DNA of 64,000 bases from the NCBI GenBank assembly GCA_965205025.1, contig CBDBFU010000002.1, forward strand, positions 224,001 through 288,000. Reading direction: 5' to 3'. The notes beneath the pieces are model-generated. The model saw nothing but the letters and a program-made list of their open reading frames with translations, was not told the origin of the DNA and made no database searches. This document shows, in pieces, positions 39,829 to 56,470 of this stretch (positions within the stretch are counted from its first letter, which is position 1; each line of letters starts with the position of its first letter). Position numbers and translations under genes: made by a program. This stretch comes from Candidatus Poribacteria bacterium. Lineage in GTDB: Bacteria > Poribacteria > WGA-4E > WGA-3G.

Positions 39829-39856
39829 GACGCGATTTTGTGATGCAGAATTGCAT
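39829..39856 (-). promoter_or_regulatory. Putative ECF autoregulatory promoter TGCAAT-N15-CGCGTC
   Basis: Related motif at a similar position upstream of all five sigma-WD40 genes. Confidence 0.6.
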
Positions 39857-39918
39857 ATTTCGAAGAAAAAATCGAATTTTAATGGAAGAACGATTATTAT
39901 TTACACACCATGTCTGTT

Positions 39919-40398
39919 CTAATGCGTTTCATTCTTACGTTCAGGTTCAAGGTATTGACGGTTAAAATCTATCACTATATCTTTACAGAACTCATCCAGC
40001 TGCTCCAGCGATGGCTTGCCGACAGGGGTATAGAACCCTAATAATCCTTCAGCACCTTCATAAAAGCATATAGATATTTCTACAACGGGTAAATGTTGTT
40101 CATTCTCCCATTCGCGATAAGATATGTTGAATACGATCTGTACAAAATATGCCCAATCTTCTTTTACATCATTCTTAACAATCTTAACATCACCGAGACC
40201 CACTAACTCTTGTTCAATATATTTTTGAAGGGCTTCTCTAAAATTGGTCGTCTCATGTTTATCTTTTGAGCGGTCAGTTTTAATACCTTCTTGATAGCAA
40301 GACGTAACTCTGACAGCAACTAAGAACTTATTTTCAATCTTCGTCCGTCTGATCTTAGATTTATAAGATGCAGTCTTTGGAAATTTATCCGTTTCCAT
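39919..40398 (-). CDS. Hypothetical protein
   Basis: 159-aa ORF with AAGGAG RBS; no family recognised. Confidence 0.6.
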   Translation of the reverse strand: METDKFPKTASYKSKIRRTKIENKFLVAVRVTSCYQEGIKTDRSKDKHETTNFREALQKYIEQELVGLGDVKIVKNDVKEDWAYFVQIVFNISYREWENEQHLPVVEISICFYEGAEGLLGFYTPVGKPSLEQLDEFCKDIVIDFNRQYLEPERKNETH

Positions 40399-40531
40399 TA
40401 TCGCAACTCCTTTGTATTAGATTGTAATATGCGCAATGAATTGCGCGACTACAAACGCTGTAATTCTAAATTTTGGACAATTCCGCGTGTCCGCTTAGTA
40501 GATTGTTTTTAACTTGTAAGACCTCAGGCAT

Positions 40532-43471
40532 TCATCGATCCGAACCCTTGAGGACTTCATCCCAATCCCACAGAAGAATTGTACCATCTTCCCCTGTACT
40601 TACAAGTGTTTTGCCATCGGGTGAGAACACCAACGTTTGCACTGTCGCTGTGTGTCCTTCAAGTATAGTAGGTTTATCTTCTGTTTCCAGATCCCATAAC
40701 TCAATTTCACCACCATTATGTCCGATAACAAGCATAGTATTATCTGCTGCAAACACTAACGTTTCGGCACTGGCACTATTGAATATTTCCTTAAGAAGGG
40801 TATGTTTATGATCTGCCAACAAACGTAACAAACGTACGCTTTTGTAACTTACCATAGCAAGCAAACTGCCATTTGGTGAGAATGCCAATGTTGGAATATG
40901 TTCCTGATAGGCGATACTAACATCAGGTGGGGTCCCTTCCACTATCGGCCCTTTTCCTTCAAAGAGTCGGGCTAACGAAACGCCAGTTTCCGCATCCCAC
41001 ATCTCGACCTTTCCGCCCCGGGTTGCACCAACAAGTTTTTTGCCATCTGGTGAAAAAACTAAAGCACTGATTTTAGACTCAAGAGCTCTGATTTGAGTAT
41101 GAATGTGGTCAGGCAACTTGTCAATATCGTCCTGATCTAAGTGAGATGTATCAAGAGATATATCAAAAGTCTCACCTGTCTCTGTATTCCACACACGAAT
41201 CTTACCAGAATCGTCGAATGCCACCGTTTTTCCATCAGGTGAAAAAGTAAGGCATGAAGAACCTCCTTCCGTAGCCAAAGTCTGCAATTCATGTCCTGTT
41301 CTAACGTCACTCAGACGAACCAGCGGCTCATGTGTATACTGCATAGAGGCATGTGGGAAGGCTCTATTACCTTTTACACCAGCACTTGCGAGCTTTGTCC
41401 CATCAGGTGAAAACGCTGAAGCCGATAACCAATCTTGATGTCTTTCAGGATAGAAATCGGTTTTTTGTAAGGCACTCGAATCCGTTTTTTCCAATGTTTT
41501 CTCATCCCATAAGCTAACTACCCTATTATGCGCTACAGTTGCAAGCGTGGTGTTATTTTTAAAGAAAGTCGCTGCTTCCACCTGCATTGTGTGTCCGGTG
41601 ATACGGGTAGGTAATGAATTTCCTGTCTCAATATTCCAAAACTGGACTGTGCCATCTGCACTTCCACTGGCAAGTGTGCGATTATCTGGTGAAAACGTTA
41701 AAGCATTGATGCCGCAGCTATGACCTGTGAAAGTGATGAGAAGTTCTCCCGTGGCGATATGCCACAACTGCACTGTCTTATCGGTCCCGCCGCTGGCAAG
41801 CATATTTCCGTCTGGAGAGAACGCTAACGCATTGACCCATCCCGTGTGTTTGTCAAGGAGAATAGATGCTTTACTGTCGGTATCCCATAATTGTAATGGG
41901 ACTTTTTCATCATTATTTTTACCTGCACTCGCGAGACGTGTGCCATCAGGTGAAAATTCCAAGGCTAAAATACGCATGTTTCCCTTGAGTGTAGACAGTA
42001 TTTCGCCTGTCGTTGTGTCCCACAACTCAATCTTAGTTTCTGTTCCAACTGCAAATTTATCATGTGTGAGCGCAAAAAGATCCTTATAATCCCAATTTGT
42101 TCGTCCTTTGATATGCTTCACATTCCCTTTTCCTGTTTCAACATCTAACTGTCTGATTGAGTCTCCTTTGTTACTCAAAGCAAAAAGTGTTTTGCTATCT
42201 TCAGAGAACCGCAATACTGAGGCATGCGGAAAATAATCAGTGCGTTGCATTTTCTGACCAGTAGCCACTTCCCATAACTGGGGTCCCTCTCTGTAATAAC
42301 CGCCAATATTGCCTGCAAGGAAGCGTCCGTCTGGAGAAAATGCGATGGATTCGCACTTACCGGGGAACATGGATACTTCTTTACCCGTTTTCGCATCATA
42401 AAGCCACACACCTATACTACTGCCCACCGCGAGTTGCGTGCCATCTGGTGAGAATTGAAGCACATTAATCCCGCCTTTTCCCAAGCGTGCTTTTGCAGCT
42501 TTTGGCAATTTCCATTGTGTATAATCTTTCACAATTTCCTCTCCTTGTGCCTCTGTAATTGCTGCAGGGGCATTATTAGGTTGCTGTTCAGGGTTATTAC
42601 GCTTATCCAATACGTTGACACTTTCTATTTCCGTCCGCACATCTGGTTCGGATTCCAAATTCGCAACTATAGGTGCATCAATAATATCAACCTTCATTTC
42701 TGCGGTAACATCAAGACTATAAGGTTGCTGAAAGCGAACTAAGTATCGGCTGCTCATTCCGACCATCAGTAAAATCAAAATAGCAGTTGATGCACTCAGC
42801 ACCCACGGCATAAAGGGTTTACTCCCTGATGGGGTAGTCGGTTTTATCCGTGCAACTTCTCGTATAATGTTATCAGTAAGATTTGGGGATAGTTGAAAGT
42901 TGCTAAGTGCCTCTTTTATCATCGGTTCCTCCTTTTTTAAACGCTTCCGAGCACGGTGCAATCGAAGCTTAATCGCGCTTGTAGATACACCTAAAAATCG
43001 GCTTATCTCTTCAATCGTCATTTCACCAAGATAGTGAAGTGTCATCACTGTGCGTTCACTCTCATTCAGTTTGGCAAGCAGTTTTTTAACGACTTCACGT
43101 TGAGTCTCAACTGTAACTTTCGTACGTTCTTCGGTGACATAGCGTGAATATGCTGTACCTTCTGTCCATTCAATCTTTGTGTATTCTATTGGTGCAGTTT
43201 TAATACGCTTTTTACGAAGCCATTCCCGGCATTGGTTGGTCGCAATTACATACAGCCATCCAGGAAACTGATCTGGATTTCTCAATGTTCCAAGTTTCTG
43301 ATGGACTTTCAGGAAGGTGTCCTGTGTAATCTCTTCGGCGATGTGGAAATCGCCGATCTTACGCCAAGCGAGCGTATGTACCTGCTTCTGATATTTTTCC
43401 ACTAAACTGACAAAGGCGGTATCATCACCCTCAAGGATACGGTGTATAAGTTTAACGTCATCATTCTTCAT
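40532..43471 (-). CDS. ECF sigma-TM-WD40 fusion
   Basis: Start MKNDD with GAGGT RBS; sigma2/sigma4 (GVSTSAIKLRLHRA), TM, YTQWKLPKAAKARLGKG, WD40. Confidence 0.92.
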   Translation of the reverse strand: MKNDDVKLIHRILEGDDTAFVSLVEKYQKQVHTLAWRKIGDFHIAEEITQDTFLKVHQKLGTLRNPDQFPGWLYVIATNQCREWLRKKRIKTAPIEYTKIEWTEGTAYSRYVTEERTKVTVETQREVVKKLLAKLNESERTVMTLHYLGEMTIEEISRFLGVSTSAIKLRLHRARKRLKKEEPMIKEALSNFQLSPNLTDNIIREVARIKPTTPSGSKPFMPWVLSASTAILILLMVGMSSRYLVRFQQPYSLDVTAEMKVDIIDAPIVANLESEPDVRTEIESVNVLDKRNNPEQQPNNAPAAITEAQGEEIVKDYTQWKLPKAAKARLGKGGINVLQFSPDGTQLAVGSSIGVWLYDAKTGKEVSMFPGKCESIAFSPDGRFLAGNIGGYYREGPQLWEVATGQKMQRTDYFPHASVLRFSEDSKTLFALSNKGDSIRQLDVETGKGNVKHIKGRTNWDYKDLFALTHDKFAVGTETKIELWDTTTGEILSTLKGNMRILALEFSPDGTRLASAGKNNDEKVPLQLWDTDSKASILLDKHTGWVNALAFSPDGNMLASGGTDKTVQLWHIATGELLITFTGHSCGINALTFSPDNRTLASGSADGTVQFWNIETGNSLPTRITGHTMQVEAATFFKNNTTLATVAHNRVVSLWDEKTLEKTDSSALQKTDFYPERHQDWLSASAFSPDGTKLASAGVKGNRAFPHASMQYTHEPLVRLSDVRTGHELQTLATEGGSSCLTFSPDGKTVAFDDSGKIRVWNTETGETFDISLDTSHLDQDDIDKLPDHIHTQIRALESKISALVFSPDGKKLVGATRGGKVEMWDAETGVSLARLFEGKGPIVEGTPPDVSIAYQEHIPTLAFSPNGSLLAMVSYKSVRLLRLLADHKHTLLKEIFNSASAETLVFAADNTMLVIGHNGGEIELWDLETEDKPTILEGHTATVQTLVFSPDGKTLVSTGEDGTILLWDWDEVLKGSDR

Positions 43472-43515
43472 TTGACACCTCAAAAAATGTACCAAATTAA
43501 TAGATATGCATTCAT

Positions 43516-43543
43516 GACGCGGGTTAGAGGGAGAATGGTTACT
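43516..43543 (-). promoter_or_regulatory. Putative ECF promoter GTAACC-N15-CGCGTC
   Basis: Conserved CGCGTCA -10 with a variant -35. Confidence 0.55.
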
Positions 43544-43769
43544 TAATTCTTTGAAAAGCGGATTTTTCGCAATAATTAATTTTGAACGGGTAATCAGGAG
43601 GATTGATTACCAATTTATCACATCAATAAATTGATGTATAGGATTTGCTTGGTAAGGGGTGAAAACTTTTTGGCACTGCACTACAGTGTATCTCATAAAT
43701 ACGAATCTAATTATTTATTATCCATCTGAACCCTTAAGGACTTCATCCCACCCGAAAATGAACCAGAGA

Positions 43770-44258
43770 TTAATCTTGGGCATTTATTATAGAGTGAAGA
43801 TCCCATAGATACACGATACCATCAAGTGCTCCACTTGCGAATAAGCTTCCATTCGGACTGAAACTAACTGTATAAACACCTTGATTATGCGCATCAAAAA
43901 TTGCAATCTGAGTTTTGGTAGCAACATCCCATAGACCGATTTTTCCATGATGGGCACTCACCAACATTTTGCCATCTGGACTAAATGCCACGGTATTTAC
44001 CTCTGCTGTTGCGTCCATTAAAGCAAGTTCTTGAGTCGTCTCTACATCATAAAGCCAAATACCTGTATTAGTTGCTACGGCGAGAAGTTTACCGTCTGGT
44101 GAATATGCAATTTCATTCACCCCACCTTTTCCTAAACGCGCGATTGCCCCGTCAGGTAAACCCCAACGTGTGTAGTCTGGTTGTGCATAAACTGTGGATA
44201 GAAATAGCAGCGAAATGAAGAAGAGTGTAAATAGAATTATCTTTGTTTTTGATGACAT
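43770..44258 (-). CDS. Short secreted WD40 protein, possibly truncated
   Basis: Signal peptide, YTRWGLPDGAIARLGKGG, about 3 WD40 repeats; orphan WDEVLKGSDG* tail at 43718-43750. Confidence 0.75.
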   Translation of the reverse strand: MSSKTKIILFTLFFISLLFLSTVYAQPDYTRWGLPDGAIARLGKGGVNEIAYSPDGKLLAVATNTGIWLYDVETTQELALMDATAEVNTVAFSPDGKMLVSAHHGKIGLWDVATKTQIAIFDAHNQGVYTVSFSPNGSLFASGALDGIVYLWDLHSIINAQD

Positions 44259-44334
44259 TTAGTGTTCCCTCTGGAAAAAGTAAATTAGGAAGGTCCCAAT
44301 TCGATAGTAAATTCGTGATTCTCTCGGTGGTGAT

Positions 44335-44453
44335 CTTATACCATTTCTATAAATGTATCCCATGAACAGTTGTTAAGCTTGTCTTGAAATACTGCACAAA
44401 CTGGAAGTTTATGCTACATTGAAGAAACTTTAAGTATTTAGAAATGGTATAAG
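44335..44453. mobile_element. MITE family A, intact
   Basis: Perfect 15-bp TIRs CTTATACCATTTCTA / TAGAAATGGTATAAG; central imperfect palindrome GCACAAACT-GGA-AGTTTATGC. Confidence 0.75.
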
Positions 44454-44478
44454 AAAAATCTATGAAATGGTAACACGT

Positions 44479-47478
44479 TTAAAGGTTAAAGGACTCATTT
44501 TGAGTTGTACCCTTAAGAACTTCTTTCCAATCCCAAATAAGGATCGTACCGTCTTCTCCACATGTGGCAAGGGTTGTGCCGTCTGCAGAAAAAACCATCT
44601 TGGATATCCAACTTGTATGTCCAGTAAGAGTCGTGATAATTTTCCCTGTTGTTGCATTTCGTAATTCAATAAATCCATGTCGACTCCCACTGACAAGAGT
44701 TAATCCATCTGGAGAGAACGTCAACGATGTTGGAGGATCATTATAACCTATGCCTTCCAGTCTAATTACAGCATCAAAGCTGTTAGTTTCAGGATTTTGG
44801 GAATAAATGTGTCTTCCTGCAGCAAAAGTATTATTACTATCAGGTGGGAACGCAATCTTCCCTTGGTCTTGTAGTGTCTGAATCTCAGCACCAGTCATAG
44901 GATCCCATATCCTAATTGTCTTGTCCTTATCTGTCCAACCAGAACTAACAACAGTTTTGTTATCAGGTGAAAATGCTAAACTGATAACAGCAGTAGTATG
45001 TCCTTCAAGTCTACACAGAGTTTGTCGTTTAGCAACATCCCATATTTGTATAGAATTGTCTTGACGAGAACTCACAGCAAGAAGTTTGCCATCCGGTGAG
45101 AATACCACTTCAGCTTGAAATCCACCACTTTTTTCCTTTCCTCCTAAGACACATAACAAACCTTTTGATTCTGTATCCCATAGTCGGACAACACAATTAT
45201 CAAAATCAATTGTATCTCTGGTTACAAATAGGCGTCCATCTGGTGAAAAAGCTACTTCTGAATTTTTTTCATCATTATTCTCAATCCTATCAATCGTAAA
45301 TTCCTTTCCAGTATCCACATCCCATACAGAAACAAATACCTGCGAGTTTCTCCTACTGATACTGGTGATGGTTTTAATTACACTCTCAGAATGATTCGGT
45401 TTTTCTGTCACCGTTGGTAATTCAGAATGATTGATGTCATTGAATACTAAAGCGGAAACCGACCCCGAATGATTAATCAATGTGAATTGTTCATTCCCTG
45501 AATCGGTTTCCCACAAACGAACAGTACCATCTGTATTGGCACTTACAATCTGTTTACCATCCGGTGAAAAACTGATTGCCTTAAATCTTCCGTATTCTTC
45601 ATGTCCTTCAAACATACGGATAGGTTTCTGACGGGTAGCAGTATTCAGCATACGTTTTAATGTAGAAGATGCACTCCCCGTGTCAATATCCCAGAGACGG
45701 ACTATACCATCAGAACATCCAACAGCAAGCAGACTACTATTTGGTGAAAATGCCAATACCTCTGGTGTTGTATCGGTATTAAGTGTAGACTTAAGCATTT
45801 CACTTGCAATATCCCATAACAGGATTCTATTGGAACCTTCAATAATGGCAAGTGTATTGTTATTTGGTGAAAATGCCAATTCAGTGATATTTTTCATCTT
45901 TTTTTCCACTTTGAATATACAATGTCCAGTCGCCATATCCCATACCTGAATTGGAGGAATATCCTTTTTATTCCGCCAATATGCATTGGCACTTGCAGCC
46001 GCAATATATCGTCTGTCAGGGGAGAATGTCACAAGCAATTCTTCAGAAATTTCATCTAATGCTGCAACCGTAGATTGATATGTATGATCCGAGAGATTCC
46101 AAAGACGAGTTGCCCCGTCTTGTCCCCACCGTACACTGTGCCAACCACTTGCACTAAACAATTTCGTATTGTCATCTGTAAATATCAACTCTCTAACCGG
46201 ACCATCAAATCCTTCAAAGGAAGATTTCAGACTTTGTGTCTGTACATCCCAAATTTGTATATTTCCATCAAAATCTCCACAAGCAAGGGTGTTTCCATCT
46301 GTAGAAAAAGCCAACACATTGATATATAATCTTCCTTGTTTTCGGTTAATATCATTGTTATCAGAAAGTAATGCGATTTCCTCTCCAGTATTTGCATCGT
46401 AAAACCATAGACCGATAGAAGTTCCAAGTACAAATAATTTACCATCTGGTGCGAATTTAATATCGGTAACCTCACCCTTCCCTAAACGGGTTTTTGCTTT
46501 TTCTGGTATCATACTCTTTGTATATTCTTTCATGATTTCCTCTGTTTGTTTATCCTCAGATAATGTAGTCATGTTTTCATTTTTTTCTTCTTCAGATTCA
46601 TTTTGTTTTACCAAAACGATCCTATTTTTAATTTGCATTCGTAAATCCTGTTTAGATTTCAAGTTCGCGACGATAGGAGCGTCAACGATTTCAACCGTCA
46701 TATCTGCTGTAGTATCAAACGAATAAGGGTGCTGAAAGAGGGGTAAGTATTGGTGGTTACCAAAACCAAGTATTAACACCACAATTACTAACGTGGAAGC
46801 AACTATTCCCCACGGAACTATAGGTTTAGTACTGGTTGGTGTCATCGGTTTGCTTCGTGAGATTTCTTTCATTATCGTATCCGTGAGATTTGGTGAAATC
46901 TGGTAATTCTCTAACGCTTCTCTAATGATTCCTTCATCCTTCTGCAAACGCTGTTGCGCACGGTGAAGTCTACTTTTAACTGTATTTGCGGAAACACCTA
47001 AAAACGCACCAATCTCTTTACACGTCATATCCCCATAATAGTGAAGTGTCATGACAGTCCGTTCACTTTCCTTAAGTTTTGCAAGCAATTTTTCGACAAC
47101 AATACGCTGGGTTTCTGCCGAGGAACGTTTGTTCTCTGTAGCAACATATTCCGAATAAGTTGATTCTTTAGGTTGTTTGATATCAATCTTCTCTTGTAGT
47201 TGAGTTCGGATGTTTTTATTACGTAACCATGTATTGCAAAGATTTGAAGCAATTACATACAACCATCCAGCAAATAGTTGTGGTTTCTTCAAAGTATTGA
47301 GTTGCTGATATGCCCTCAGAAATGTATCCTGCGTAAGTTCTTCCGCAAAATGAAAATCCCCAATTTTCTTCCACACAAGGGCATGAACCTGCTTTTGGTA
47401 TTTTTCAACAAGCTCCGAGAATGCATTATCATCACCTTCAAGACTGCGGTGAATCAGGTGTGTATCATTGTTTATCAT
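44479..47478 (-). CDS. ECF sigma-TM-WD40 fusion
   Basis: Sigma2/sigma4 (GVSANTVKSRLHRA), TM PWGIVASTLVIVVLILG, WD40. Confidence 0.92.
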   Translation of the reverse strand: MINNDTHLIHRSLEGDDNAFSELVEKYQKQVHALVWKKIGDFHFAEELTQDTFLRAYQQLNTLKKPQLFAGWLYVIASNLCNTWLRNKNIRTQLQEKIDIKQPKESTYSEYVATENKRSSAETQRIVVEKLLAKLKESERTVMTLHYYGDMTCKEIGAFLGVSANTVKSRLHRAQQRLQKDEGIIREALENYQISPNLTDTIMKEISRSKPMTPTSTKPIVPWGIVASTLVIVVLILGFGNHQYLPLFQHPYSFDTTADMTVEIVDAPIVANLKSKQDLRMQIKNRIVLVKQNESEEEKNENMTTLSEDKQTEEIMKEYTKSMIPEKAKTRLGKGEVTDIKFAPDGKLFVLGTSIGLWFYDANTGEEIALLSDNNDINRKQGRLYINVLAFSTDGNTLACGDFDGNIQIWDVQTQSLKSSFEGFDGPVRELIFTDDNTKLFSASGWHSVRWGQDGATRLWNLSDHTYQSTVAALDEISEELLVTFSPDRRYIAAASANAYWRNKKDIPPIQVWDMATGHCIFKVEKKMKNITELAFSPNNNTLAIIEGSNRILLWDIASEMLKSTLNTDTTPEVLAFSPNSSLLAVGCSDGIVRLWDIDTGSASSTLKRMLNTATRQKPIRMFEGHEEYGRFKAISFSPDGKQIVSANTDGTVRLWETDSGNEQFTLINHSGSVSALVFNDINHSELPTVTEKPNHSESVIKTITSISRRNSQVFVSVWDVDTGKEFTIDRIENNDEKNSEVAFSPDGRLFVTRDTIDFDNCVVRLWDTESKGLLCVLGGKEKSGGFQAEVVFSPDGKLLAVSSRQDNSIQIWDVAKRQTLCRLEGHTTAVISLAFSPDNKTVVSSGWTDKDKTIRIWDPMTGAEIQTLQDQGKIAFPPDSNNTFAAGRHIYSQNPETNSFDAVIRLEGIGYNDPPTSLTFSPDGLTLVSGSRHGFIELRNATTGKIITTLTGHTSWISKMVFSADGTTLATCGEDGTILIWDWKEVLKGTTQNESFNL

Positions 47479-47520
47479 AGATTCCCTCCGATTATATTTA
47501 GGCCGATTGATACTAATAAT

Positions 47521-47548
47521 GACAACGCAAAGGAATAAATGGGGTGCA
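47521..47548 (-). promoter_or_regulatory. Putative ECF promoter TGCACC-N16-GTTGTC
   Basis: -35 and spacing match the 52154 and 56443 copies. Confidence 0.6.
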
Positions 47549-47550
47549 TA

Positions 47551-47698
47551 ATTATAACTATAGTTTGGACATTATTATAACTATAGTTTGGACATTTTAA
47601 GCTGCAGTATGTGTATTAAAGTAGTTTTGATCCAAGTGACTGCTTTAGTATCAGATCAACCTAAAATATCTGATAAATTGTCCAAAACTATAGTATAA
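47551..47698. mobile_element. MITE family D with a duplicated left end
   Basis: TIR CTATAGTTT(T)GGACA at 47581 and 47679-47693, TATAA flanks, 23-bp tandem duplication 47551-47596. Confidence 0.6.
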
Positions 47699-47962
47699 TT
47701 TATACAAGCTTAAATTAGGAATGAATTGTTGGTTGTTAGGTGTCGTTCGGTTGAACTAAAGGATGAAACCTTTTTCATCAATGTAAACAACTTTCCATCC
47801 TTCAGGTTCTACCCTTTATTCTTTAGGTCGGCTTTCTGTTCCTCAGAAAGTTTCGGTTCATCATTAAATGTCGTTTAGGATTCTCTGAACAGGGAAGTTA
47901 AGAGACCTTACCTACTATTGAATAAGAGTATCTATTAGATTGTCCACGATTCTACTTCTACC

Positions 47963-50900
47963 CTAATCCTGCATCTTACGATTGATTTTCAAGTCATCAA
48001 ACGGTTGTCCGTTTTGATCGGTGATCCGCAGATAAAATCCCCATCCACCTGCTTCCTGGCACACTTTGACAAGGATACTGTTCTTTCCTTGTTTGAGCGT
48101 TATAGGAATACCGTATCTGTCAATTTCTGCACTATGTGTTTTTGTATGTGTGAATACCTCTTCACCATTTAACCATACTTTCCCTTGGTCATCACTATCA
48201 AAGCGGATTTGTGCTTCCCGATTATCAGGTGAAGTAAGGGTAGCGAACGCGTAAGCGACACACCAAAAAACATCCTTTCCGAAACCGATATAACCGTTTA
48301 GTGAATCATCTGTGCATTTTTGCCAACTCACCTTTTCATTAAGTCCATCGTATTTCGCATCCAAATCTATCTCAGTGATGTCTTCAGGGATGTATACTGT
48401 ATCAAAACCGATTCTACCTGCATTATCGAATGGACCCAGAATCATCCATGAATCTTTAGGAATAAAACCAGTTTTCTGTATATATGCGTTTACCTTCATT
48501 CCACTGTCATTGCCACTATTACGATAAACACGATAAAATTCTGCCAAAACAAAGTTCGTACTTCTTTGCTGTTCAGGGGTAAGGTTGTGAATAATAGAGT
48601 CGATTTTTCGTATGTACTCATCTGACTTCTCAACCATCCCTTTCTTATGATAATATACAGCCATACTAAGGTAAACATCAATCTGGAAGGTAGTACTTTC
48701 TGCTGAAAGGTCTACAGTTATAGAATCAACCTCTCGGGTATGCTCTTCTACCTTTTGATGCATACCCTGTTGGTGATAAAAATCTGCCAAAACCAGATGC
48801 GCATTTATTCGGATACTCAGACTATGAGAAAAATGATCAATCAATTTATCCATCATATTGGCAAAACCCTCTTTGTCTTGAATGTTTTTACCTACTTTGC
48901 CAATTTTCGTGAATAGTTCATATTGAAAAACCGGAGACGTTGTGACAATCTCATCACTTTGATAATCTGCAGCTGATAGATATTTGATGAATTCTATAAA
49001 CGCATCTTCAAACCATTCGTTTGCCAGATATACCTCACCATTCGTCAAGATATGATCAGAGATTTTGGGTTTGTCTGTTGAATGTTCAAGGAATTGCAAC
49101 ACAGTTTCTGGTGATTGATTCTCTTCGTGTATATTCGTAAGAACTTTTTCCCAATCCCAAAAAAGAATCGTACCACCACCAACACTGATTAGTGTTTTGT
49201 TATCATCTGAAAAGGATAAATCTTCCACTGATACTGAGTGCCCTTCAAGTGTAGAGAGTAAATCTCCGGTATGAACATCCCATAATTCAATATTACCACC
49301 CCAAAAACCGACAATTAGTATTGTATTATCTGGTGAAAAAATACATTTATCACAAGAACTTTTATTATCAAAAGTGACTTCTCTAAAATGGGGTTGTTTT
49401 GCCCTTCCTATCAAACGCAGCCGTTTATTACTACCTACAGCAATCAGGGAACTGTCTGATGAGAAAGCTAAGTTAAAGATTGGATTACTGTCCCTGTATG
49501 AATTATCCTTTGGAGGTATCTCCTCAAAGAAAGAACTTAACTCCGCTCCAGTTTCCACATCCCACAACTGAACACGCCCACCCATTGTTCCACTGACAAT
49601 TTTTTCTCCATCTGGTGAAAATGCCACAGTTCTGATAAGAGGTTTATGATCATCGGAATCTTCGTCGTGTTCTGAAGTGACAATCTCACGTTCTGCCCCG
49701 GTTTCAATATTCAGCAAACGGATTTTATTACCACTACTGCTGATTAAAGTTTTGCCATCAGGTGAAAATACCTCGCAATATCCAGATGGTAAAACCTTTA
49801 ACTCACGTCCTGTGCTAACTTCAGATAAACGAAGCACCCTCCTATTAAAGTCTGGCTTAGTTGAATTTCTCTGTGTGCCGTGAGCAGCGAGGATTGTTCC
49901 ATCAGGTGACAAGACAACTCGTCTGTACCATCTCCAATATAACGGTTCTTCAAGCATCGTTTTTGTTATAGAAGTTGTTTTTTGTGAATTCTTCAGATCC
50001 CAAACTGTAATAATACCGTGCTCAGAAACACTCACCAATTTGGAACCATCATTCAGAATAGATGCTGTGCGCATCCACATGTGTCCTGAAATTCGTTTCT
50101 GTAGCGGTTTTCTTTTCTTAATATCCCAAAACCTGATAGCTCCCTCTGTCCCACCACTCACAAGCGTGTTCCCATCTGGTGAAAATACTAATGAACCTAC
50201 CTTGCTGAAATGACCCGTGAACGTAGCAATCATTTTTCCTGTAAGAGTATTCCACAATTTAATAGTGCTATCTTCACTTCCACAGGCAAGTAGTGTGGCA
50301 TCTGGAGAGAACGCCAATACCACAGGTCTACCATTCCTCTCGTTCTTCATTGGATTGTTTACTATCTCTTTACCATTTTCAGTTGATACTCTCCAAGTTT
50401 TACCTTCTACAATAGGTTTTTGATAAACTATCAATTCTTCGCCTGTGGAGGTATCCCATAGTTGAACCGTTGTATCCAAATTCCCAGTTGCGAGTCGCGT
50501 GCCATCAGGTGTAAATTTCATAGTCAATGCATGGTTATTCCTAACGAAATAATCCGGCATACGAATTTCTTTCCCAAATTCCCTGAGTGTGGACAACTTT
50601 ATACCTGTCCTTGTATCCCACAACTCAATTCTTCCATCATCACTCCCGATTGCGATTTTATCTTCTGCGAGTGCGTAATTTTCAAGATGTAAGTACCCGG
50701 GTCTTTCTCCTAACTTTGTGGTAGTCGTCTCACCAGTTTCAACATTTACCCTATATATTGTGTCTCTTGCCATACTTAAGAACACAAGTGTTTTGCTATC
50801 ATTTGAGAATCGGATCACTTTTGCAGCAGGTAATACCTCTTTTACCGAAACTTCACTCGCTGTTGCTATATTCCACAACACTACACCCTTCTCCAGATGA

Positions 50901-52108
50901 CTTCCACCAAAACTTGTGATAGGGTCTCCTCCACGGGATGCAATAAAGCGACCATCAGGAGAATATGCAAAAATACCATACATATTTGGGATTAGGGAAA
51001 TCTCTTCTCCTGTTTTTACATCGTAGTGCCATACACCGATGCTACTTCCCACTGTGATTTGCGTACTATCTGGTGAAAACTGCATTCCCCAAATACCGCC
51101 CTTCCCTAAACGCATTTTGGCTTCTTTTGGCAGATGCCATTGTGGATAATTCTCCATTTTATTCTCCTCTCCTGTTTCTGTAGATAGTAGTTGTGTATTA
51201 TCCTGTTGTAGTTTAGGAACAGGAATATCAGGTTGTCGGTTATTATTTTCTACTTGTTGATGCACATTCGATTCTAATACAAGCTTATCTATTACAGGAG
51301 CCTCTACGATTTCAACCGACACCTCTGAACTCGCATCTAAACTATACGGTTGTTGAAAAAGTGACAAATTTTTATTACTGCCAATACCTAACATTATCAA
51401 TACAACTACGAATGTTGAGGCAGCGACTAACCAAGGGACAAACGGTTTGCTGGTTGGTGAAACTATGGGATCTGCTTTGGCGATCTCACGCATGATGTTT
51501 TCCGTGAGATTTGGTGTAATTTTATAGTTTTCCAACGCCTCTCTTATGAAAGGTTCATGTTTCATCAAACGTTGTCGTGCTCGACGTAGTCGACTCTTAA
51601 TCGTATTTGCTGACACCCCTAAAAACTCACTAATCTCTGTACATGACATTTCTCCGAAGTAATGCAATGTCACAACAGTGCGGTCACTCTCCTGCAGTTT
51701 AGCAAGCAACTTCTTCACTACATAACGTTGGGTTTCTACCGCGGATTGTTCTTTTTCCGTAACCACATATTCAGAATATATGGTTTCTTCAATTTTCTCA
51801 TTGTCCGCCTGTTCCATTTCTTCAAATGACTGTGTCTGTATACGTTTTTTACGCAACCAAGCCAAGCAGCACCGTCTTGTAATCACATACATCCAACCGG
51901 CAAATCGCTGTGGATCCTTTAAGGTTTTCAATCGCATATATGCTTTTAGAAATGCATCTTGCGTAATCTCTTCTGCAATATGGAAATCACAGATATACCG
52001 CCATGCAAGCGCGTGCACCTGTTTCCGATATTTTTCCACCAATTTAGAAAAAGCGTCGTCATCCCCTTCAAGGGTAAGTTGGATAAGTTCGGTATCGTCG
52101 TAGTTCAT
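47963..52108 (-). CDS. ECF sigma-TM-WD40 fusion with C-terminal helical/TPR-like and PA14-like domains
   Basis: Sigma2/4, TM, WD40, then WMILGPF...DSDDQGKVWLNG...GKNSILVKVC. Confidence 0.92.
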   Translation of the reverse strand: MNYDDTELIQLTLEGDDDAFSKLVEKYRKQVHALAWRYICDFHIAEEITQDAFLKAYMRLKTLKDPQRFAGWMYVITRRCCLAWLRKKRIQTQSFEEMEQADNEKIEETIYSEYVVTEKEQSAVETQRYVVKKLLAKLQESDRTVVTLHYFGEMSCTEISEFLGVSANTIKSRLRRARQRLMKHEPFIREALENYKITPNLTENIMREIAKADPIVSPTSKPFVPWLVAASTFVVVLIMLGIGSNKNLSLFQQPYSLDASSEVSVEIVEAPVIDKLVLESNVHQQVENNNRQPDIPVPKLQQDNTQLLSTETGEENKMENYPQWHLPKEAKMRLGKGGIWGMQFSPDSTQITVGSSIGVWHYDVKTGEEISLIPNMYGIFAYSPDGRFIASRGGDPITSFGGSHLEKGVVLWNIATASEVSVKEVLPAAKVIRFSNDSKTLVFLSMARDTIYRVNVETGETTTTKLGERPGYLHLENYALAEDKIAIGSDDGRIELWDTRTGIKLSTLREFGKEIRMPDYFVRNNHALTMKFTPDGTRLATGNLDTTVQLWDTSTGEELIVYQKPIVEGKTWRVSTENGKEIVNNPMKNERNGRPVVLAFSPDATLLACGSEDSTIKLWNTLTGKMIATFTGHFSKVGSLVFSPDGNTLVSGGTEGAIRFWDIKKRKPLQKRISGHMWMRTASILNDGSKLVSVSEHGIITVWDLKNSQKTTSITKTMLEEPLYWRWYRRVVLSPDGTILAAHGTQRNSTKPDFNRRVLRLSEVSTGRELKVLPSGYCEVFSPDGKTLISSSGNKIRLLNIETGAEREIVTSEHDEDSDDHKPLIRTVAFSPDGEKIVSGTMGGRVQLWDVETGAELSSFFEEIPPKDNSYRDSNPIFNLAFSSDSSLIAVGSNKRLRLIGRAKQPHFREVTFDNKSSCDKCIFSPDNTILIVGFWGGNIELWDVHTGDLLSTLEGHSVSVEDLSFSDDNKTLISVGGGTILFWDWEKVLTNIHEENQSPETVLQFLEHSTDKPKISDHILTNGEVYLANEWFEDAFIEFIKYLSAADYQSDEIVTTSPVFQYELFTKIGKVGKNIQDKEGFANMMDKLIDHFSHSLSIRINAHLVLADFYHQQGMHQKVEEHTREVDSITVDLSAESTTFQIDVYLSMAVYYHKKGMVEKSDEYIRKIDSIIHNLTPEQQRSTNFVLAEFYRVYRNSGNDSGMKVNAYIQKTGFIPKDSWMILGPFDNAGRIGFDTVYIPEDITEIDLDAKYDGLNEKVSWQKCTDDSLNGYIGFGKDVFWCVAYAFATLTSPDNREAQIRFDSDDQGKVWLNGEEVFTHTKTHSAEIDRYGIPITLKQGKNSILVKVCQEAGGWGFYLRITDQNGQPFDDLKINRKMQD

Positions 52109-52153
52109 TCGTCACCTCTAATATAAATGGTTCATTACCTTTTTATTCTCTAT

Positions 52154-52181
52154 GACGCGATCTGAAACGAAAACGGGTGCA
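52154..52181 (-). promoter_or_regulatory. Putative ECF promoter TGCACC-N16-CGCGTC
   Basis: Both hexamers and spacing identical to 56443-56470. Confidence 0.7.
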
Positions 52182-52265
52182 TAATTTTACCCGAATTTTG
52201 CAATTCCTTCAAACGGATCAATACATTATTCGTCTCTAATAACATATATATTTAATGTCACTCTC

Positions 52266-55200
52266 TTACTGTGTCACGCGATTGATCCCTAAATCCTCAA
52301 ACGCATGTCCGTTTTGGTCGGTAATCCGCAGATAGAATGCCCATCCACCCATCTCATTACATACCTTAACAAGAATACTATTCTTACCTTGTTTGAGAGT
52401 TACAGGAATAGTGTACCTATCAATTCTTGCCATAAAGGCTTTGGTATGCGAAAAGATCTCATTGCCATTTAACCATACTTTTCCTTGATCGTCACTATCG
52501 AATCGAAATTGAACTTCACGTTCATCCGGGGAGGTAACGGTTGCGAATGCATAGGAGACACGCCAATTAACATTCTCCTCACCAAGATGAATATAACCAT
52601 CTACCTCTTCATCCGTGAACTCTTTCCAACTTACTGTTCCATTGAGTCCATCATATTTTGCATTCAGGTCAATCTGTGTAATGTCTTCAGGGATGTATGC
52701 TGTATCATAGCCGACTCCATCAGCATTATCAAATGGTCCAAGTACCATCCAAGCGTCTTCTGTAACAAAACCAGTTTTTTGGATATACTCATCTGCTTTT
52801 TCAACTATACCAATCTCACGATAATAGTTAGCTAATTCGAATTTAGTTTCTAACAGAAGTTTCAGACTGTAGGGATCATTATGGTCAAGTTCAGCCGTCA
52901 TATCACCAATCTTCTTAATAAACAGATCTGCCTTCTCAACCATATTACTTTCATGATAATACTTAGCCATACTGAGACTGGCGTCCAACTGGTGGTTAAG
53001 ACTCTCAGTGGGAAGGTCAGCAGTTATAGATTCAATTTTCTTAATATGCTCCTCTGCTTTTTGATGTCTACCATCATCGTGATAGAATTTAGCCAAAACC
53101 AGATGTGCATTTAACTGGATACTTAGACTATCAGGAGAAAGGTCGATTAATTGATTCACCATATCGGTAAACCCATTTTTATTCTGGATGCCCTTGCTAA
53201 ATTTGCCAATTTTTGCGAATAACTTGCGTTGAAAACTTGGGGATGTTGTGACATTCCAATCTGGTGGATAATTTGTAGGGAATAAGTATCTTTTAAATTG
53301 TTCTAACGCTGCTTCATACCATTCGTTTGCAAGATATACCTCTCCTTGTGTTAGGAAACGATCTACACTTTTCGCTGGATGCGATGAATGTTCAACGAAT
53401 TTTATCACTTTTTCTTTGGATTGTTCATGAATGTTAATGTCCACATCAGCCTTATGTTCCTGATTCTCTCCACGCGCACTTCTAAGAACTGTGTCCCAAT
53501 CCCAAAACAGAACGTTCCCACCTCCAACACTAATAAGAGTCTTATTATCTGGTGAAAATTTCAAATCTTCTAAAGATACCGAGTGTCCATGAAGTGTCGT
53601 AAGTAATTCTCCAGTTGGCACATCCAATAACCGAATTTCGCCACCATAAAGGCTTCTAAGAAGTACACTATCATCTGGAGAAAAAACTAATAAATCGTCA
53701 TAGACGTTGTCATCTTCGGATACCTCCTTAAAATAAGGTTGGTTCGAACTTCCCAATAAACGTATCTTTTTCCTGCTTCCTACAGCAAGGAGTGAACCAT
53801 CTGAAGAGAAAGCAAAGGCTCTAATAGAATCCTGATAATTGCCATCAATTGGAGGTTGTTCTTCAAAGAAAGAAGATAATTCAACTCCTGTTTCCACATC
53901 CCACATCTGAACAAGTCCCCCGTTTGTACCACTGACAATCTTTTTCCCATCTGGTGAGAATTCAAAACCATTGAGAACTGGGGTATGCGTATCGGAATCA
54001 TCATCCGGTTCTTCAGCTATAATGATCTCCCACATTTCACCTGTTTCAGTATTCAATAAGCGTATCTTATTTCCACCCCAAGCAGCTAAGAGTTTTCCAT
54101 CAGGTGAAAAAATTCTGCCACTTCCACTCGGAAATGCTTTCAATTCCCGTCCTGTTCTGACATCAGTTAAACGAAGTACAGAAGTATTATCGCTTTGTCT
54201 GCCGTGATTGGCAAGTTTTGTTCCATCAGGGGATAACGCATAATGTCTGTAACTTTCCCAATATAACGGTTCCTCAAGTGTCGCTTTAGTCTTGAAGGTA
54301 GTTTTTTGTGAATTTTGCATATCCCATACGGTGACGATACCGTTGGATGAAACACTTGCCAAGTGGGATCCATTATAAAAAAAAGATGCTGTTCTCATCC
54401 ACATGTGTCCTCCAATGCGAGTTTGGAGGGGATTACGCAGTCTAATATCCCAGAAACGAACCGTACCATCGGCACTTCCACTTGCAAGGGTGTTCCCATC
54501 TGGGGAAAATGCTAATATGCGTATAGTACTGAGGTGTCCTGTGAAAATTACGATCAATTCACCAGTAAGAGTATTCCACAATTTTATTGTACAATCTTCA
54601 CTTCCACAGGCAAGGATAGTGCCATCTGGAGAGAATGCCAAGCTAATTGGTCTTCCCATCCTCTCATCCTTCATAGGATCTCGTACTATATTCTTGCCAT
54701 CTTGAGAGAATACCAGATTACCTTTGCTTTGTTTAGGCTTTTGTAAGGTAATCAACTCTTTGCCTGTGGTTGTATCCCATAGTTGTACCGTTGTATCTAA
54801 ATTTCCAGTTGCGAGTTGTGTGCCATCTGGTGAAAATTCCATAGTTAAAGGATGGTTTTCCTTCGAAAAAGAACGCGGCATACGGACTGTTTCACCATAT
54901 TCCTTAAGTGTGAATAACCTATTACCTGTCGTTGTGTCCCATAACTCAAGCTTTCCTTTTCTGTCTGAAATAGCGATTTTATCTTCAGTTAGTTCATAGT
55001 ATTCAGATGATGAAGTCTCAGTCCTTTCCCGCATTTCTGTGACTTTCTTTTCTCCGGTCTCCACATTCCACCTGATAATCTCACGTCCGGATTCACCTAT
55101 ACTTATAATCGTTTTTCCATTATCAGTAAATAGGAAACTGGAAGACAAAGAAGGAGCATCAGTCGGTGTGACATTTTTTCCTGTGGCCATCTCCCACAAT

Positions 55201-56396
55201 TCAACATTACCCCCACCTTTTACAATTAAACGTCCATCTGGTGAAAATGCTAATGCTATAGATCCTCGCCTTCCAGGAAATAGGGACATTTCCTTACCTG
55301 TACTTACATCGTAGAACCAGATTCCGAGCGTGCTACTCAACGCGAGTTGCGTGCCATCTGGTGTAAACTGAATTGCCCCAATACCACCCTTACCTAATCG
55401 CGCTTTAGCTTCTTTTGGAATCTCCCATTGTGGATAATTTTCAACAGTACCATTTGCCTGTACATCTTCAACTGATGGTGTATCATTAGATTGTTCTTCA
55501 GAAACTGTCTTTTTAATTTGTGCATTCATACTACCAATTTTCCTTTGTTCCTCAGGTTTCAATGTAGGTTTTTTCATAACTGGTGCCTCCACAATATCAA
55601 TCTCTGTCTCAGACTTAGCATCAAAATTATAAGGTTGCTGAAACCGTGTTAATGTCTTGTTGTATCCAAACCCTAACATTAGCATAACAACTACTACTAC
55701 TGATGTAGCAGTAATTAACCATGGAACCAACGGTTTATTTCCAGACGGAACAGTGGGTTGTGTTTGTGAAATCTCACGCATGATGTTTTCTGTAAGATTT
55801 GGTGTAATTTTAAAGTTTTCCAATGCCTCTTTTATGATGGGTTCATGTTCCTTTAAACTTTGTCGTGCTCGACGTAGTCGACTCTTAATCGTATTTGCTG
55901 ATACACCTAAAAACTCACCGATCTCTGTACATGACATTTCACCGAAGTAATGCAATGTCACGACAGTACGTTCACTCTCCTGTAGTTTTTCGAGTAATTT
56001 CTTCACAATTTCGCGTTGATTTTCTACCGTGGCTTTCTCTTTTTCCGCTACCACATATTCAGAATACACGGTTTCTTCTAATTGCTCATTGTCTACCTGC
56101 TTCATTTGCTCATGCGACTGTGTCCGTAGACGCTTTTTACGCAACCACGCCAGACAGCACCGTCTTGTAATCACATACATCCAACCAGCAAATCGCTGTG
56201 GATCCTTCAAGGTTTTCAATCGCATATATGCTCTTAGAAATGCATCTTGTGTAATTTCCTCAGCGATATGGAAATCACAGATATACCGCCACGCAAGCGC
56301 GTGTACCCGCTTCTGATATTTTTTCATCAGCATAGAAAATGCGTCGTCATCTCCTTCAAGGGCACGGTGGATAAGTTCAGCATCTTTGTATTCCAT
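52266..56396 (-). CDS. ECF sigma-TM-WD40-PA14-like fusion (tandem paralog of 47963-52108)
   Basis: Same architecture; sigma core nearly identical to the neighbour. Confidence 0.92.
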   Translation of the reverse strand: MEYKDAELIHRALEGDDDAFSMLMKKYQKRVHALAWRYICDFHIAEEITQDAFLRAYMRLKTLKDPQRFAGWMYVITRRCCLAWLRKKRLRTQSHEQMKQVDNEQLEETVYSEYVVAEKEKATVENQREIVKKLLEKLQESERTVVTLHYFGEMSCTEIGEFLGVSANTIKSRLRRARQSLKEHEPIIKEALENFKITPNLTENIMREISQTQPTVPSGNKPLVPWLITATSVVVVVMLMLGFGYNKTLTRFQQPYNFDAKSETEIDIVEAPVMKKPTLKPEEQRKIGSMNAQIKKTVSEEQSNDTPSVEDVQANGTVENYPQWEIPKEAKARLGKGGIGAIQFTPDGTQLALSSTLGIWFYDVSTGKEMSLFPGRRGSIALAFSPDGRLIVKGGGNVELWEMATGKNVTPTDAPSLSSSFLFTDNGKTIISIGESGREIIRWNVETGEKKVTEMRERTETSSSEYYELTEDKIAISDRKGKLELWDTTTGNRLFTLKEYGETVRMPRSFSKENHPLTMEFSPDGTQLATGNLDTTVQLWDTTTGKELITLQKPKQSKGNLVFSQDGKNIVRDPMKDERMGRPISLAFSPDGTILACGSEDCTIKLWNTLTGELIVIFTGHLSTIRILAFSPDGNTLASGSADGTVRFWDIRLRNPLQTRIGGHMWMRTASFFYNGSHLASVSSNGIVTVWDMQNSQKTTFKTKATLEEPLYWESYRHYALSPDGTKLANHGRQSDNTSVLRLTDVRTGRELKAFPSGSGRIFSPDGKLLAAWGGNKIRLLNTETGEMWEIIIAEEPDDDSDTHTPVLNGFEFSPDGKKIVSGTNGGLVQMWDVETGVELSSFFEEQPPIDGNYQDSIRAFAFSSDGSLLAVGSRKKIRLLGSSNQPYFKEVSEDDNVYDDLLVFSPDDSVLLRSLYGGEIRLLDVPTGELLTTLHGHSVSLEDLKFSPDNKTLISVGGGNVLFWDWDTVLRSARGENQEHKADVDINIHEQSKEKVIKFVEHSSHPAKSVDRFLTQGEVYLANEWYEAALEQFKRYLFPTNYPPDWNVTTSPSFQRKLFAKIGKFSKGIQNKNGFTDMVNQLIDLSPDSLSIQLNAHLVLAKFYHDDGRHQKAEEHIKKIESITADLPTESLNHQLDASLSMAKYYHESNMVEKADLFIKKIGDMTAELDHNDPYSLKLLLETKFELANYYREIGIVEKADEYIQKTGFVTEDAWMVLGPFDNADGVGYDTAYIPEDITQIDLNAKYDGLNGTVSWKEFTDEEVDGYIHLGEENVNWRVSYAFATVTSPDEREVQFRFDSDDQGKVWLNGNEIFSHTKAFMARIDRYTIPVTLKQGKNSILVKVCNEMGGWAFYLRITDQNGHAFEDLGINRVTQ

Positions 56397-56442
56397 CGTT
56401 ATATCCTGGCTTAAAGTCGTTGATTATCTATTTAAACACTGT

Positions 56443-56470
56443 GACGCGCAATAGAGTGCAAACGGGTGCA
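56443..56470 (-). promoter_or_regulatory. Putative ECF promoter TGCACC-N16-CGCGTC
   Basis: Matches 52154-52181. Confidence 0.7.

Follow-up and report, generated by a model that had tools for sequence, protein, structure and literature searches.

When a bacterium carries dozens of paralogous sigma factors, does each of them read a promoter of its own, or do they all converge on one? The question is raised by a 64,000-nt stretch of DNA from a Candidatus Poribacteria bacterium (assembly GCA_965205025.1, contig CBDBFU010000002.1, positions 224,001 to 288,000), which we call the window and in whose coordinates all positions are given unless a contig is named. Five co-directional minus-strand open reading frames (ORFs) in it, genes A to E, each encode an N-terminal extracytoplasmic function (ECF) sigma factor, a hydrophobic helix at about residues 220-242 and WD40 propellers. 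A first-pass annotation of the window had proposed that a conserved promoter precedes every sigma-WD40 gene, that its -35 element co-varies with the recognition helix of sigma4, and that the two make up a recognition code insulating paralogous circuits. The pattern of residue-base covariation reported here makes it likely that each fused sigma positively regulates its own gene from an ECF-type promoter, and that its specificity co-evolved with that promoter as the family expanded.

All five proposed motifs were found on the minus strand by a regular-expression check of the window, and the recognition-helix strings quoted with them are correct: GVSANTIKSRL in genes D and E, GVSANTVKSRL in C, GVSTNTVRSRL in A and GVSTSAIKLRL in B (Table 1). 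Two details required slight adjustment. The -35 element of gene B had been written as GTAACC-N15-CGCGTC (43542..43516), and GTAACC is indeed present at 43542-43537; alignment with the family, however, sets the register at AGTAAC-N16, the same as that of TGCACC-N16. The spacer of gene A is one base shorter, as it also is wherever another member of its clade has a site. The 7-mer containing the -10 hexamer ends 39-45 nt upstream of the five start codons, and the exact pattern TGCACC-N15-17-CGCGTC occurs twice in the window, compared with 0.00 matches expected from 100 dinucleotide-preserving shuffles. The arrangement known from autoregulatory ECF promoters, a bipartite element, AAC-type at -35 and CGT(C)-type at -10, directly upstream of the sigma factor's own gene, is therefore seen at all five window genes.

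Table 1. Genes, promoter motifs and recognition helices of the sigma-WD40 cluster, in window coordinates (PWM, position weight matrix; TM, transmembrane; aa, amino acids)
Feature	Positions	Strand	Details
Gene A	37062..39788	minus	908 aa; Sigma70_r2, r4 and ECF Pfam matches above cut-offs; WD40; TM segment at residues 220-238
Gene B	40532..43471	minus	979 aa from ATG at 43471; ECF sigma, TM, WD40
Gene C	44479..47478	minus	999 aa; ECF sigma, TM, WD40
Gene D	47963..52108	minus	1381 aa; ECF sigma, TM, WD40 and C-terminal extension of ~400 aa
Gene E	52266..56396	minus	1376 aa; paralog of D, sigma domain 82% identity
Promoter A	39829..39855	minus	TGCAAT-N15-CGCGTC; -35 TGCAAT (39855-39850), 15-nt spacer, -10 CGCGTC (39834-39829); PWM 18.0 bits; -10 7-mer ends 39 nt from ATG
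Promoter B	43516..43543	minus	-35 AGTAAC (43543-43538), -10 CGCGTC (43521-43516); PWM 27.4 bits; 43 nt from ATG
Promoter C	47521..47548	minus	TGCACC-N16-GTTGTC; -35 TGCACC (47548-47543), -10 GTTGTC (47526-47521); PWM 23.7 bits; 41 nt from ATG
Promoter D	52154..52181	minus	TGCACC-N16-CGCGTC; -35 TGCACC (52181-52176), -10 CGCGTC (52159-52154); PWM 34.8 bits; 44 nt from ATG
Promoter E	56443..56470	minus	TGCACC-N16-CGCGTC; -35 TGCACC (56470-56465), -10 CGCGTC (56448-56443); PWM 32.3 bits; 45 nt from ATG
Sigma4 recognition helix A	39264..39308	minus	GVSTNTVRSRLHRAR, residues 161-175
Sigma4 recognition helix B	42947..42991	minus	GVSTSAIKLRLHRAR
Sigma4 recognition helix C	46954..46998	minus	GVSANTVKSRLHRAQ
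Sigma2 region-2.4-like helix C	47227..47265	minus	WLYVIASNLCNTW; N and T in place of the L and A of D and E (RpoE K83/N84 equivalents)
Sigma4 recognition helix D	51575..51619	minus	GVSANTIKSRLRRAR; aligned to the RpoE recognition helix
Sigma4 recognition helix E	55863..55907	minus	GVSANTIKSRLRRAR; identical to the helix of D

The five genes belong to a much larger family. With the sigma domain of gene D as query, the 5.66-Mb assembly (33 contigs) yielded 48 full paralogs (phmmer, at least 160 bits) as well as fragments, and a two-block PWM was trained iteratively on family upstream regions. The threshold for calling a site was 12 bits, above the 10.0 bits that mark the 99th percentile for random 250-mers (n = 600). 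In this genome the family promoter takes the form AATT-ATGCA(A/C)CC-N15-(C/T)GCGTCA; across the family, information content is high at AATTATGCA(A/C)CC, at the TTT that follows it (outside the PWM) and at GCGTCA, and low in the spacer and flanks. Sites were called for 38/48 paralogs of this genome, for 77/80 public loci (the best 80 relatives), for 25/29 orthologs of gene B and for 46 of the 126 members in five other genomes, giving 186 sites for 283 members, 179 of them unique. A promoter before every sigma-WD40 gene, as the annotation had it, is thus true of the window and of 38 of the 48 paralogs genome-wide.

The motif is also largely confined to the family. Among the 19 sites in the genome that score at least 25 bits, 15 stand before family genes and two more before family remnants; at 20 bits or more the figures are 24/37 before family genes and four more before family fragments, which places the motif mainly upstream of the family's own genes at these scores. 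It could in principle be some other conserved upstream element, for example a repressor operator or a recombination or duplication boundary, and a tandem and inverted repeat does adjoin the motif of gene C. We nevertheless consider such an explanation barely credible, as the two blocks, their spacing and their AAC-like and CGTC-like cores fit ECF promoters, and the fused sigmas encoded downstream carry matching sigma4 and sigma2 contact residues. Covariation with region 2.4 of sigma2 and with the sigma4 helix, at structurally matching positions, is moreover not what one would expect of an operator.

For the 179 unique sites from this and other Poribacteria genomes, mutual information (MI) was calculated between each of 19 promoter positions and each of the 215 columns of the sigma-domain profile, a total of 4,085 pairs. 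The -35 element was numbered by its AAC core, bases three to eight of the octamer being -35 to -30, and t1 denotes the base 5' of GCGTCA. The strongest of all pairs joins helix position +8 (the S of K-S-R-L) to -34 (the fourth base, ATGCAAC), with an MI of 0.815 of 0.97 bits, and the second and third join sigma2 columns 82 and 81 (together the L and A of CCLAW) to t1. Helix position +11 is the top partner of both -33 and -32, and +7 is the top partner of -31 and the second of -30, for which column 152 comes first. These ranks are stable at thresholds of 8, 12 and 18 bits save for small swaps. The 38 sites of this genome alone again put +8/-34 and column 82/t1 at the top, and are too small a sample to recover the partners of -32 and -30.

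The pairings behind these values are sharply defined. At +8, where the family has Ser, Leu, Ile, Asn or Thr, Ser occurs with C at 138/141 sites, Leu or Ile with T at 19/19 and Asn with A at 14/14. At +7, Lys is found with C at 122 sites, with T at 26 and with A at none, and Arg with A at 23, T at four, G at one and C at none, the base in question being -30. For the dinucleotide at -33/-32, an Arg at +11 goes with AC (78/87), His with AA (36/43) and Tyr with GA (13/16); it is the residue at +11 (Arg, His, Tyr and others) that separates TGCACC from TGCAAC. The annotation had named a lack of covariation in a larger paralog set as one outcome that would count against it, and had suggested MI as one of the checks; in the larger set the covariation of the -35 element with the sigma4 recognition helix is borne out. 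Its identification of the helix 11-mer as the determinant is sound for the specific residues +7 and +8, and needs extending in two directions, in that +11 lies outside the quoted 11-mer and the upstream bases of the -10 element covary as well, with a residue of sigma2. The A/T difference directly after GVS (+3), by contrast, drops out, as this position is not a leading partner of -34, -32 or -31 by MI.

Read against these pairings, the five window genes are predicted from their sequences to fall into four classes. Gene A has Arg at +7, which goes with TT at -31/-30, and His at +11, which goes with A at -32, matching its AAT-T. Gene B combines Leu at +8, paired with T at -34, and His at +11, matching GTAAC. 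Gene C has the same -35 element as D and E and the same sigma4 contact signature except for His rather than Arg at +11, and its combination of His with ACC is a minority pairing (7/43 His sites). Gene C also differs in sigma2, where it has the N and T listed in Table 1; the column concerned is the top partner of the bases 5' of GTC in the -10 element, and this fits the GTTGTC of gene C as opposed to the CGCGTC of genes D and E.

The covarying residues are those already known to contact promoter DNA. Family positions were placed on Escherichia coli sigma-E (RpoE; 1or7_A) by alignment of gene D, which equates +7 with R171, +8 with S172, +11 with F175, +12 with R176, column 152 with Y156, and columns 81 and 82 with K83 and N84. 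The accessible text on the sigma-E4/DNA crystal structure (Lane and Darst 2006, PMC1540707) describes R176 as reading the G at -35, S172 as reading -34, F175 as touching -33, R171 as reading -31 and -32, and Y156 as lying on the downstream template backbone. In the family, the -35 G and the Arg that faces it (R176 equivalent) are both invariant, and the variable bases have as their best partners the residues that face them in that structure.

Similar pairs have been derived on a much larger scale. According to the available sections of Todor et al. 2020 (PMC7776599), MI on 84,009 ECFs gave the specificity pairs R171/-31, S172/-34, F175/-32 and N84/-13,-12; saturation mutagenesis confirmed those of R171, S172 and N84; and single substitutions at these positions shift specificity drastically (including Dataset S3). 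According to Dataset S3, the base favoured at -34 is A when Asn occupies the S172 position (0.58) and T when Ile does (0.51); at the R171 position, Lys (0.98) and Arg (0.88) favour C at -31 and Thr favours G (0.65; PMC7776599). In the family, Lys or Arg at +7 occurs with C at -31 at 185/192 sites (threshold 8) and Thr with G at 3/3, and the pairings Asn-A, Ile/Leu-T, Lys/Arg-C and Thr-G all agree with the Dataset S3 preferences. The pairs that make up the ECF specificity code, namely the equivalents of S172, R171, F175 and N84 with -34, -31, -32 and the upstream part of the -10 element, are accordingly found again in this family, with the exception of the partner of Ser. Within the parts of both papers that we could draw on, the residue-base pairs are identical, that of F175 being -32(-33). 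The differences are ones of scope and register: Todor et al. treated ECF groups from thousands of genomes and we treat one recently expanded paralog family, inside single genomes, and the N84 equivalent of the family covaries most with bases two to three positions upstream of the -13/-12 that they tested.

Several observations weigh against autoregulation with co-evolved specificity, or narrow it. Ninety-seven of the 283 members have no site of at least 12 bits, including 10/48 in this genome and 80/126 in the five other genomes, and many of these appear to use other upstream motifs, especially in the more distant genomes; as the PWM includes the -35 positions, very divergent -35 boxes are under-sampled, although the site search is blind to the protein. 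At +8, Ser pairs with C in the family, and with G in the published mutagenesis and in RpoE. Rules drawn from this genome alone and applied to other genomes do well at -34 (140/145 right, baseline 110) and at -32 (134/148, baseline 72). The rule from +7 to -30, however, does not transfer, with 1/24 non-majority predictions right (Arg goes with T here and with A elsewhere), and neither does that from column 82 to t1 (80/148 right against a baseline of 82); these two are real associations and not simple one-to-one rules. A sign test on independent pairs is underpowered, with 7-10 usable pairs, 3-5 of them in the same direction and none in the opposite one (p 0.06-0.25). Lastly, many paralogs look alike: 21 of the 38 sites in this genome fall into two -35 types (CACCC 12, CAACC 9), 111/703 paralog pairs have the same -35 signature, and genes D and E are identical in contact-residue signature, -35 octamer and -10, on which account they are predicted to cross-activate.

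The outcome of the sign test leads to the question of descent. If promoter and gene were simply duplicated as a unit, the correlation between them would arise by descent only, and another sigma factor might read the promoters. The variant classes are clades on the paralog tree, so that raw counts overstate independence, and recent duplicates have both features in common, as in gene C and its counterpart on contig C9 (C9:69929), whose promoters are identical. We therefore placed changes by parsimony on a FastTree tree built without the helix-turn-helix (HTH) and region-2.4 columns, and compared the number of changes falling on the same branch with a branch-length-weighted null. All six changes at -34 fall with a change at +8 (expected 0.19), and 11/13 changes at +7 fall with a change at -30 (expected 1.03), P < 5e-5 for both pairs. 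The remaining pairs behave in the same manner: 4/6 changes at -31 fall with +7, 7/9 at -33 and 7/13 at -32 fall with +11, and 16/36 at t1 fall with column 82 (expected 6.6).

Descent acts on all 215 columns alike, and as a control all columns were ranked in the same test. Columns 168, 164 and 165 lead for -34, columns 167, 156 and 152 for -30, and columns 82 and 81 for the base upstream of the -10 element; HTH and region-2.4 columns come to the fore, and the DNA-facing columns rank first or second. The leading columns are the known contact columns, residues that touch these very bases in solved complexes, and shared descent alone is thus insufficient. The scarcity of the motif before other genes, at the scores used, points the same way, as the regulon of an unrelated regulator would be oddly family-only. 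Joint duplication without a functional link is, in our judgement, very improbable.

A different objection accepts that the sigmas read the promoters and holds that all paralogs read one promoter type, many inputs feeding one output, with the differences in -35 being tolerated drift. The overall consensus is common to the whole family, and the predominance of two -35 signatures and the identity of D and E speak for such a shared regulon. Against it, base changes coincide with changes in the facing residue far above expectation on the paralog tree, at -34 and +7 above all. In other Poribacteria genomes each variant -35 type again accompanies the same helix residue (the Leu/Ile-T and Asn-A sites given above, all unique), and the substitutions described in the accessible part of Todor et al. 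alter specificity drastically at the same positions. We regard a single shared regulon as unlikely, though it is the strongest of the competing explanations, and favour self-regulating circuits with co-evolved promoters.

How far these circuits are kept apart is a separate matter. The 38 sites of this genome carry 13 distinct -35 signatures and 27 combined -35/-10 signatures, and insulation between classes is plausible from these sequences, if incomplete. Of the annotation's recognition code insulating paralogous circuits, the code is supported by the covariation across the 179 sites, and the insulation is predicted to be partial given D and E and the two large -35 types. A bolder reading, which we put forward tentatively and would not yet back over its alternatives, is that the roughly 50 sigma-WD40 paralogs of one genome form a natural library of self-amplifying one-protein sensors in a dozen or more mutually insulated classes (the 13 -35 signatures, subdivided by the upstream bases of the -10 element), produced by repeated paired switches of a base and a single residue at the S172, R171, F175 and N84 positions, at least six of them independent at S172/-34 and 11 at R171/-30. 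If so, the regulon of each sensor would be readable from sequence, and the many 'eukaryote-like' WD40 proteins of sponge symbionts would be the inputs of a wide, parallel transcriptional sensing network.

The architecture of the proteins suggests how such a circuit would work. Pfam scores for genes A, B and D are 43-53 bits for Sigma70_r2 (cut-off 24), 51-56 for Sigma70_r4_2 (25.7) and 31-34 for Sigma70_ECF (21.1), and TIGR02937 scores 94-97 bits against a cut-off of 42.9; with sigma2 and sigma4 as their only sigma domains and matches to the ECF profiles, the proteins belong to the ECF (group IV) sigma-70 factors. For gene B we take the ATG at 43471 as the start, which fits the N-termini of the family, and not the TTG at 43495 of the listed ORF (40532-43495). 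A simple hydropathy scan finds a single hydrophobic segment in 5/5 window genes and, among the 48 paralogs, one in 40, none in seven and two in one. The stretch from sigma4 to the TM helix was searched for a fused anti-sigma domain, and none was found: no Pfam match at E <= 0.1 falls within residues 185-330 of gene A, B or D.

Each gene would then specify a one-protein transmembrane signalling device, with a cytoplasmic ECF sigma (sigma2 plus sigma4), one membrane helix and extracytoplasmic WD40 propellers. Its upstream motif would be its own promoter, with an AAC-like -35 core, 15-16 nt between the hexamers and a GTC -10 core, and the sigma domain, once freed or activated, would read that promoter and so bring about positive autoregulation. 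As the family expanded to 48 copies, the equivalents of S172, R171, F175 and Y156 in sigma4 and of N84 in sigma2 would have changed together with the bases that face them, giving rise to several specificity classes. The mode of activation of the tethered sigma is a guess, either proteolytic release or a conformational change following a WD40 signal; release from the membrane has been suggested for the comparable ECF57 group (Casas-Pastor et al. 2021 supplement, PMC7826278).

ECF57, described in the available part of that supplement as the former planctomycetal group of Jogler et al. 2012, is the closest parallel. Its members likewise join an ECF sigma to a long C-terminal extension with TM helices, which in some of them also has WD40-like repeats; a separate anti-sigma is not seen, copies per genome are many, and a Cys in sigma2 is conserved. 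By description, however, ECF57 is 100% Planctomycetes, has a fully conserved Cys pair (sigma2 and sigma4), has about two TM helices and is said to lack a conserved promoter, whereas our family is found in Poribacteria, has the sigma2 Cys in 275/283 members and the sigma4 Cys (column 152) in only 104/283, mostly has one TM helix by the hydropathy scan above, and does have a conserved promoter. Taxon and sigma4 Cys set it apart from ECF57 as described, and we do not assign it to that group.

Among sigma factors of solved structure, Bacillus subtilis SigW is the nearest in sequence (5wuq, E 5.6e-25), and its model also scores highest in NCBIfam (117 bits). The SigW equivalog assignment was rejected (NF007223 / TIGR02948), the scores being 103-117 bits against a cut-off of 209 and 96-107 against 243. 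SigW, in the sources at our disposal, is a stand-alone protein held by the separate membrane anti-sigma RsiW, and the family sigma is fused to its sensor. The clostridial sigma-I/RsgI systems resemble the family, in the portion of PMC10575876 that treats them, in having several paralogous alternative sigmas per genome, each with an extracytoplasmic sensing module; they differ in belonging to another sigma family, in placing the sensor on a separate anti-sigma protein and in having far fewer paralogs. Rhodius et al. 2013 (PMC3817407), from the text accessible to us, likewise used autoregulatory ECF promoters to infer specificity and obtained sets of sigmas with low cross-talk, but theirs were drawn from various ECF groups and organisms and assayed in E. 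coli, whereas the candidate set here stems from duplication within a genome and is known from sequence alone.

Such a recognition code has been set out in principle before (Lane and Darst 2006, PMC1540707; Todor et al. 2020, PMC7776599), and what we describe is a new example of this known mechanism, natural and large, in a family not described until now. Our literature search found no paper linking Poribacteria with ECF sigma factors, the two papers containing both words being unrelated; a 2014 single-cell genomics paper reports, in its accessible text, abundant WD40 domains in Poribacteria and makes no mention there of sigma factors. Casas-Pastor et al. 2021 (PMC7826278) left open whether a genome with numerous copies of a single ECF group holds redundant or specialized sigmas. 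The present family would provide a concrete and testable answer for a 48-copy case, in which paralogs appear to be split into promoter classes through experimentally defined residue-base contacts. It would also add natural entries to the dictionary of ECF recognition, namely Leu/Ile-T and Asn-A at -34, G at -33 for a Tyr in the F175 position, and differing -30 bases for Arg and Lys in the R171 position, and it offers sigma/promoter pairs that are candidates for an orthogonal set. The WD40 proteins that abound in Poribacteria would gain a functional reading as sensor domains, and the data suggest that this family of a sponge symbiont is a large set of self-activating switches in several specificity classes.

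The family is widespread in one part of the phylum. When public genomes were scanned, 528 of 569 pattern matches were confirmed as relatives, and of the best 80 of these relatives, 76 are titled as Candidatus or uncultured Poribacteria metagenome-assembled genomes and four as 'uncultured bacterium'. Matches at E <= 1e-40 occur in 50/61 genomes sampled across the phylum: with the genome of the window excluded, in 34/36 genomes of its own family and in 4/6 and 11/11 genomes of two sister families, and in 0/7 genomes of the remaining five families. The 50 genomes together contain roughly 1,200 members. The sigma-WD40 family is therefore present in three families of one order, with up to 52 copies per matching genome in the family of the window and one to four in the sister families (E <= 1e-40).

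A number of further features of the locus and genome deserve mention. The ~400 residues that follow the propellers in D and E (47963-49300 and 52266-53600, minus strand) contain a sub-threshold TPR_8 match and a conserved C-terminal block. Between genes B and C, a 162-aa minus-strand ORF (43770-44258) has a signal-peptide-like N-terminus and WD40 repeats and lacks a sigma domain; no family promoter site was found upstream of it in the genome-wide scan, which extended down to 13 bits. Just 5' of the -35 box of gene C (47555-47700, minus strand), the 21-nt unit tgtccaaactatagttataat occurs twice in tandem, and some 90 nt farther upstream its core recurs as a near reverse-complement; the unit could be a duplication scar or a binding site. 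Gene C (44479-47548 with its promoter) and the gene near 69929 on contig C9 are identical in their first 25 residues as well as in their promoters, which suggests a recent segmental duplication, and the upstream regions of two other C9 genes, 65719 and 59200, are near-identical.

Nine sites of at least 20 bits do not stand before family genes (C12:195123, C2:123723, C9:94062, C10:16386, C28:111090, C24:56893, C33:55560, C2:118669 and C7:47358) and are candidates for extra regulon members; one precedes a 310-aa WD40 ORF and another lies 230 nt before a 338-aa ORF. Five paralogs of full or near full length, C1:81076 (minus), C7:45228 (minus), C12:186305 (plus), C16:72421 (plus) and C10:19002 (plus), have no recognisable family promoter within 200 nt; the first of these directly follows what appears by eye to be the 3' end of a WD40-type coding region, and may be co-transcribed with it. 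On the plus strand at C16:75423, a family promoter of 26.8 bits precedes an ORF that starts at the post-sigma4 linker; lacking the sigma domain, this family member may be a target of the intact paralogs. Sister-family members (L236-L267; genomes G003, G011 and G015) have other upstream motifs and helix types, for example CATCTGATC ... GTGCATCAT with the helix GTSRGA(I/V)L(D/N)RLY, and these sequences may represent further specificity classes beyond the set analysed here.

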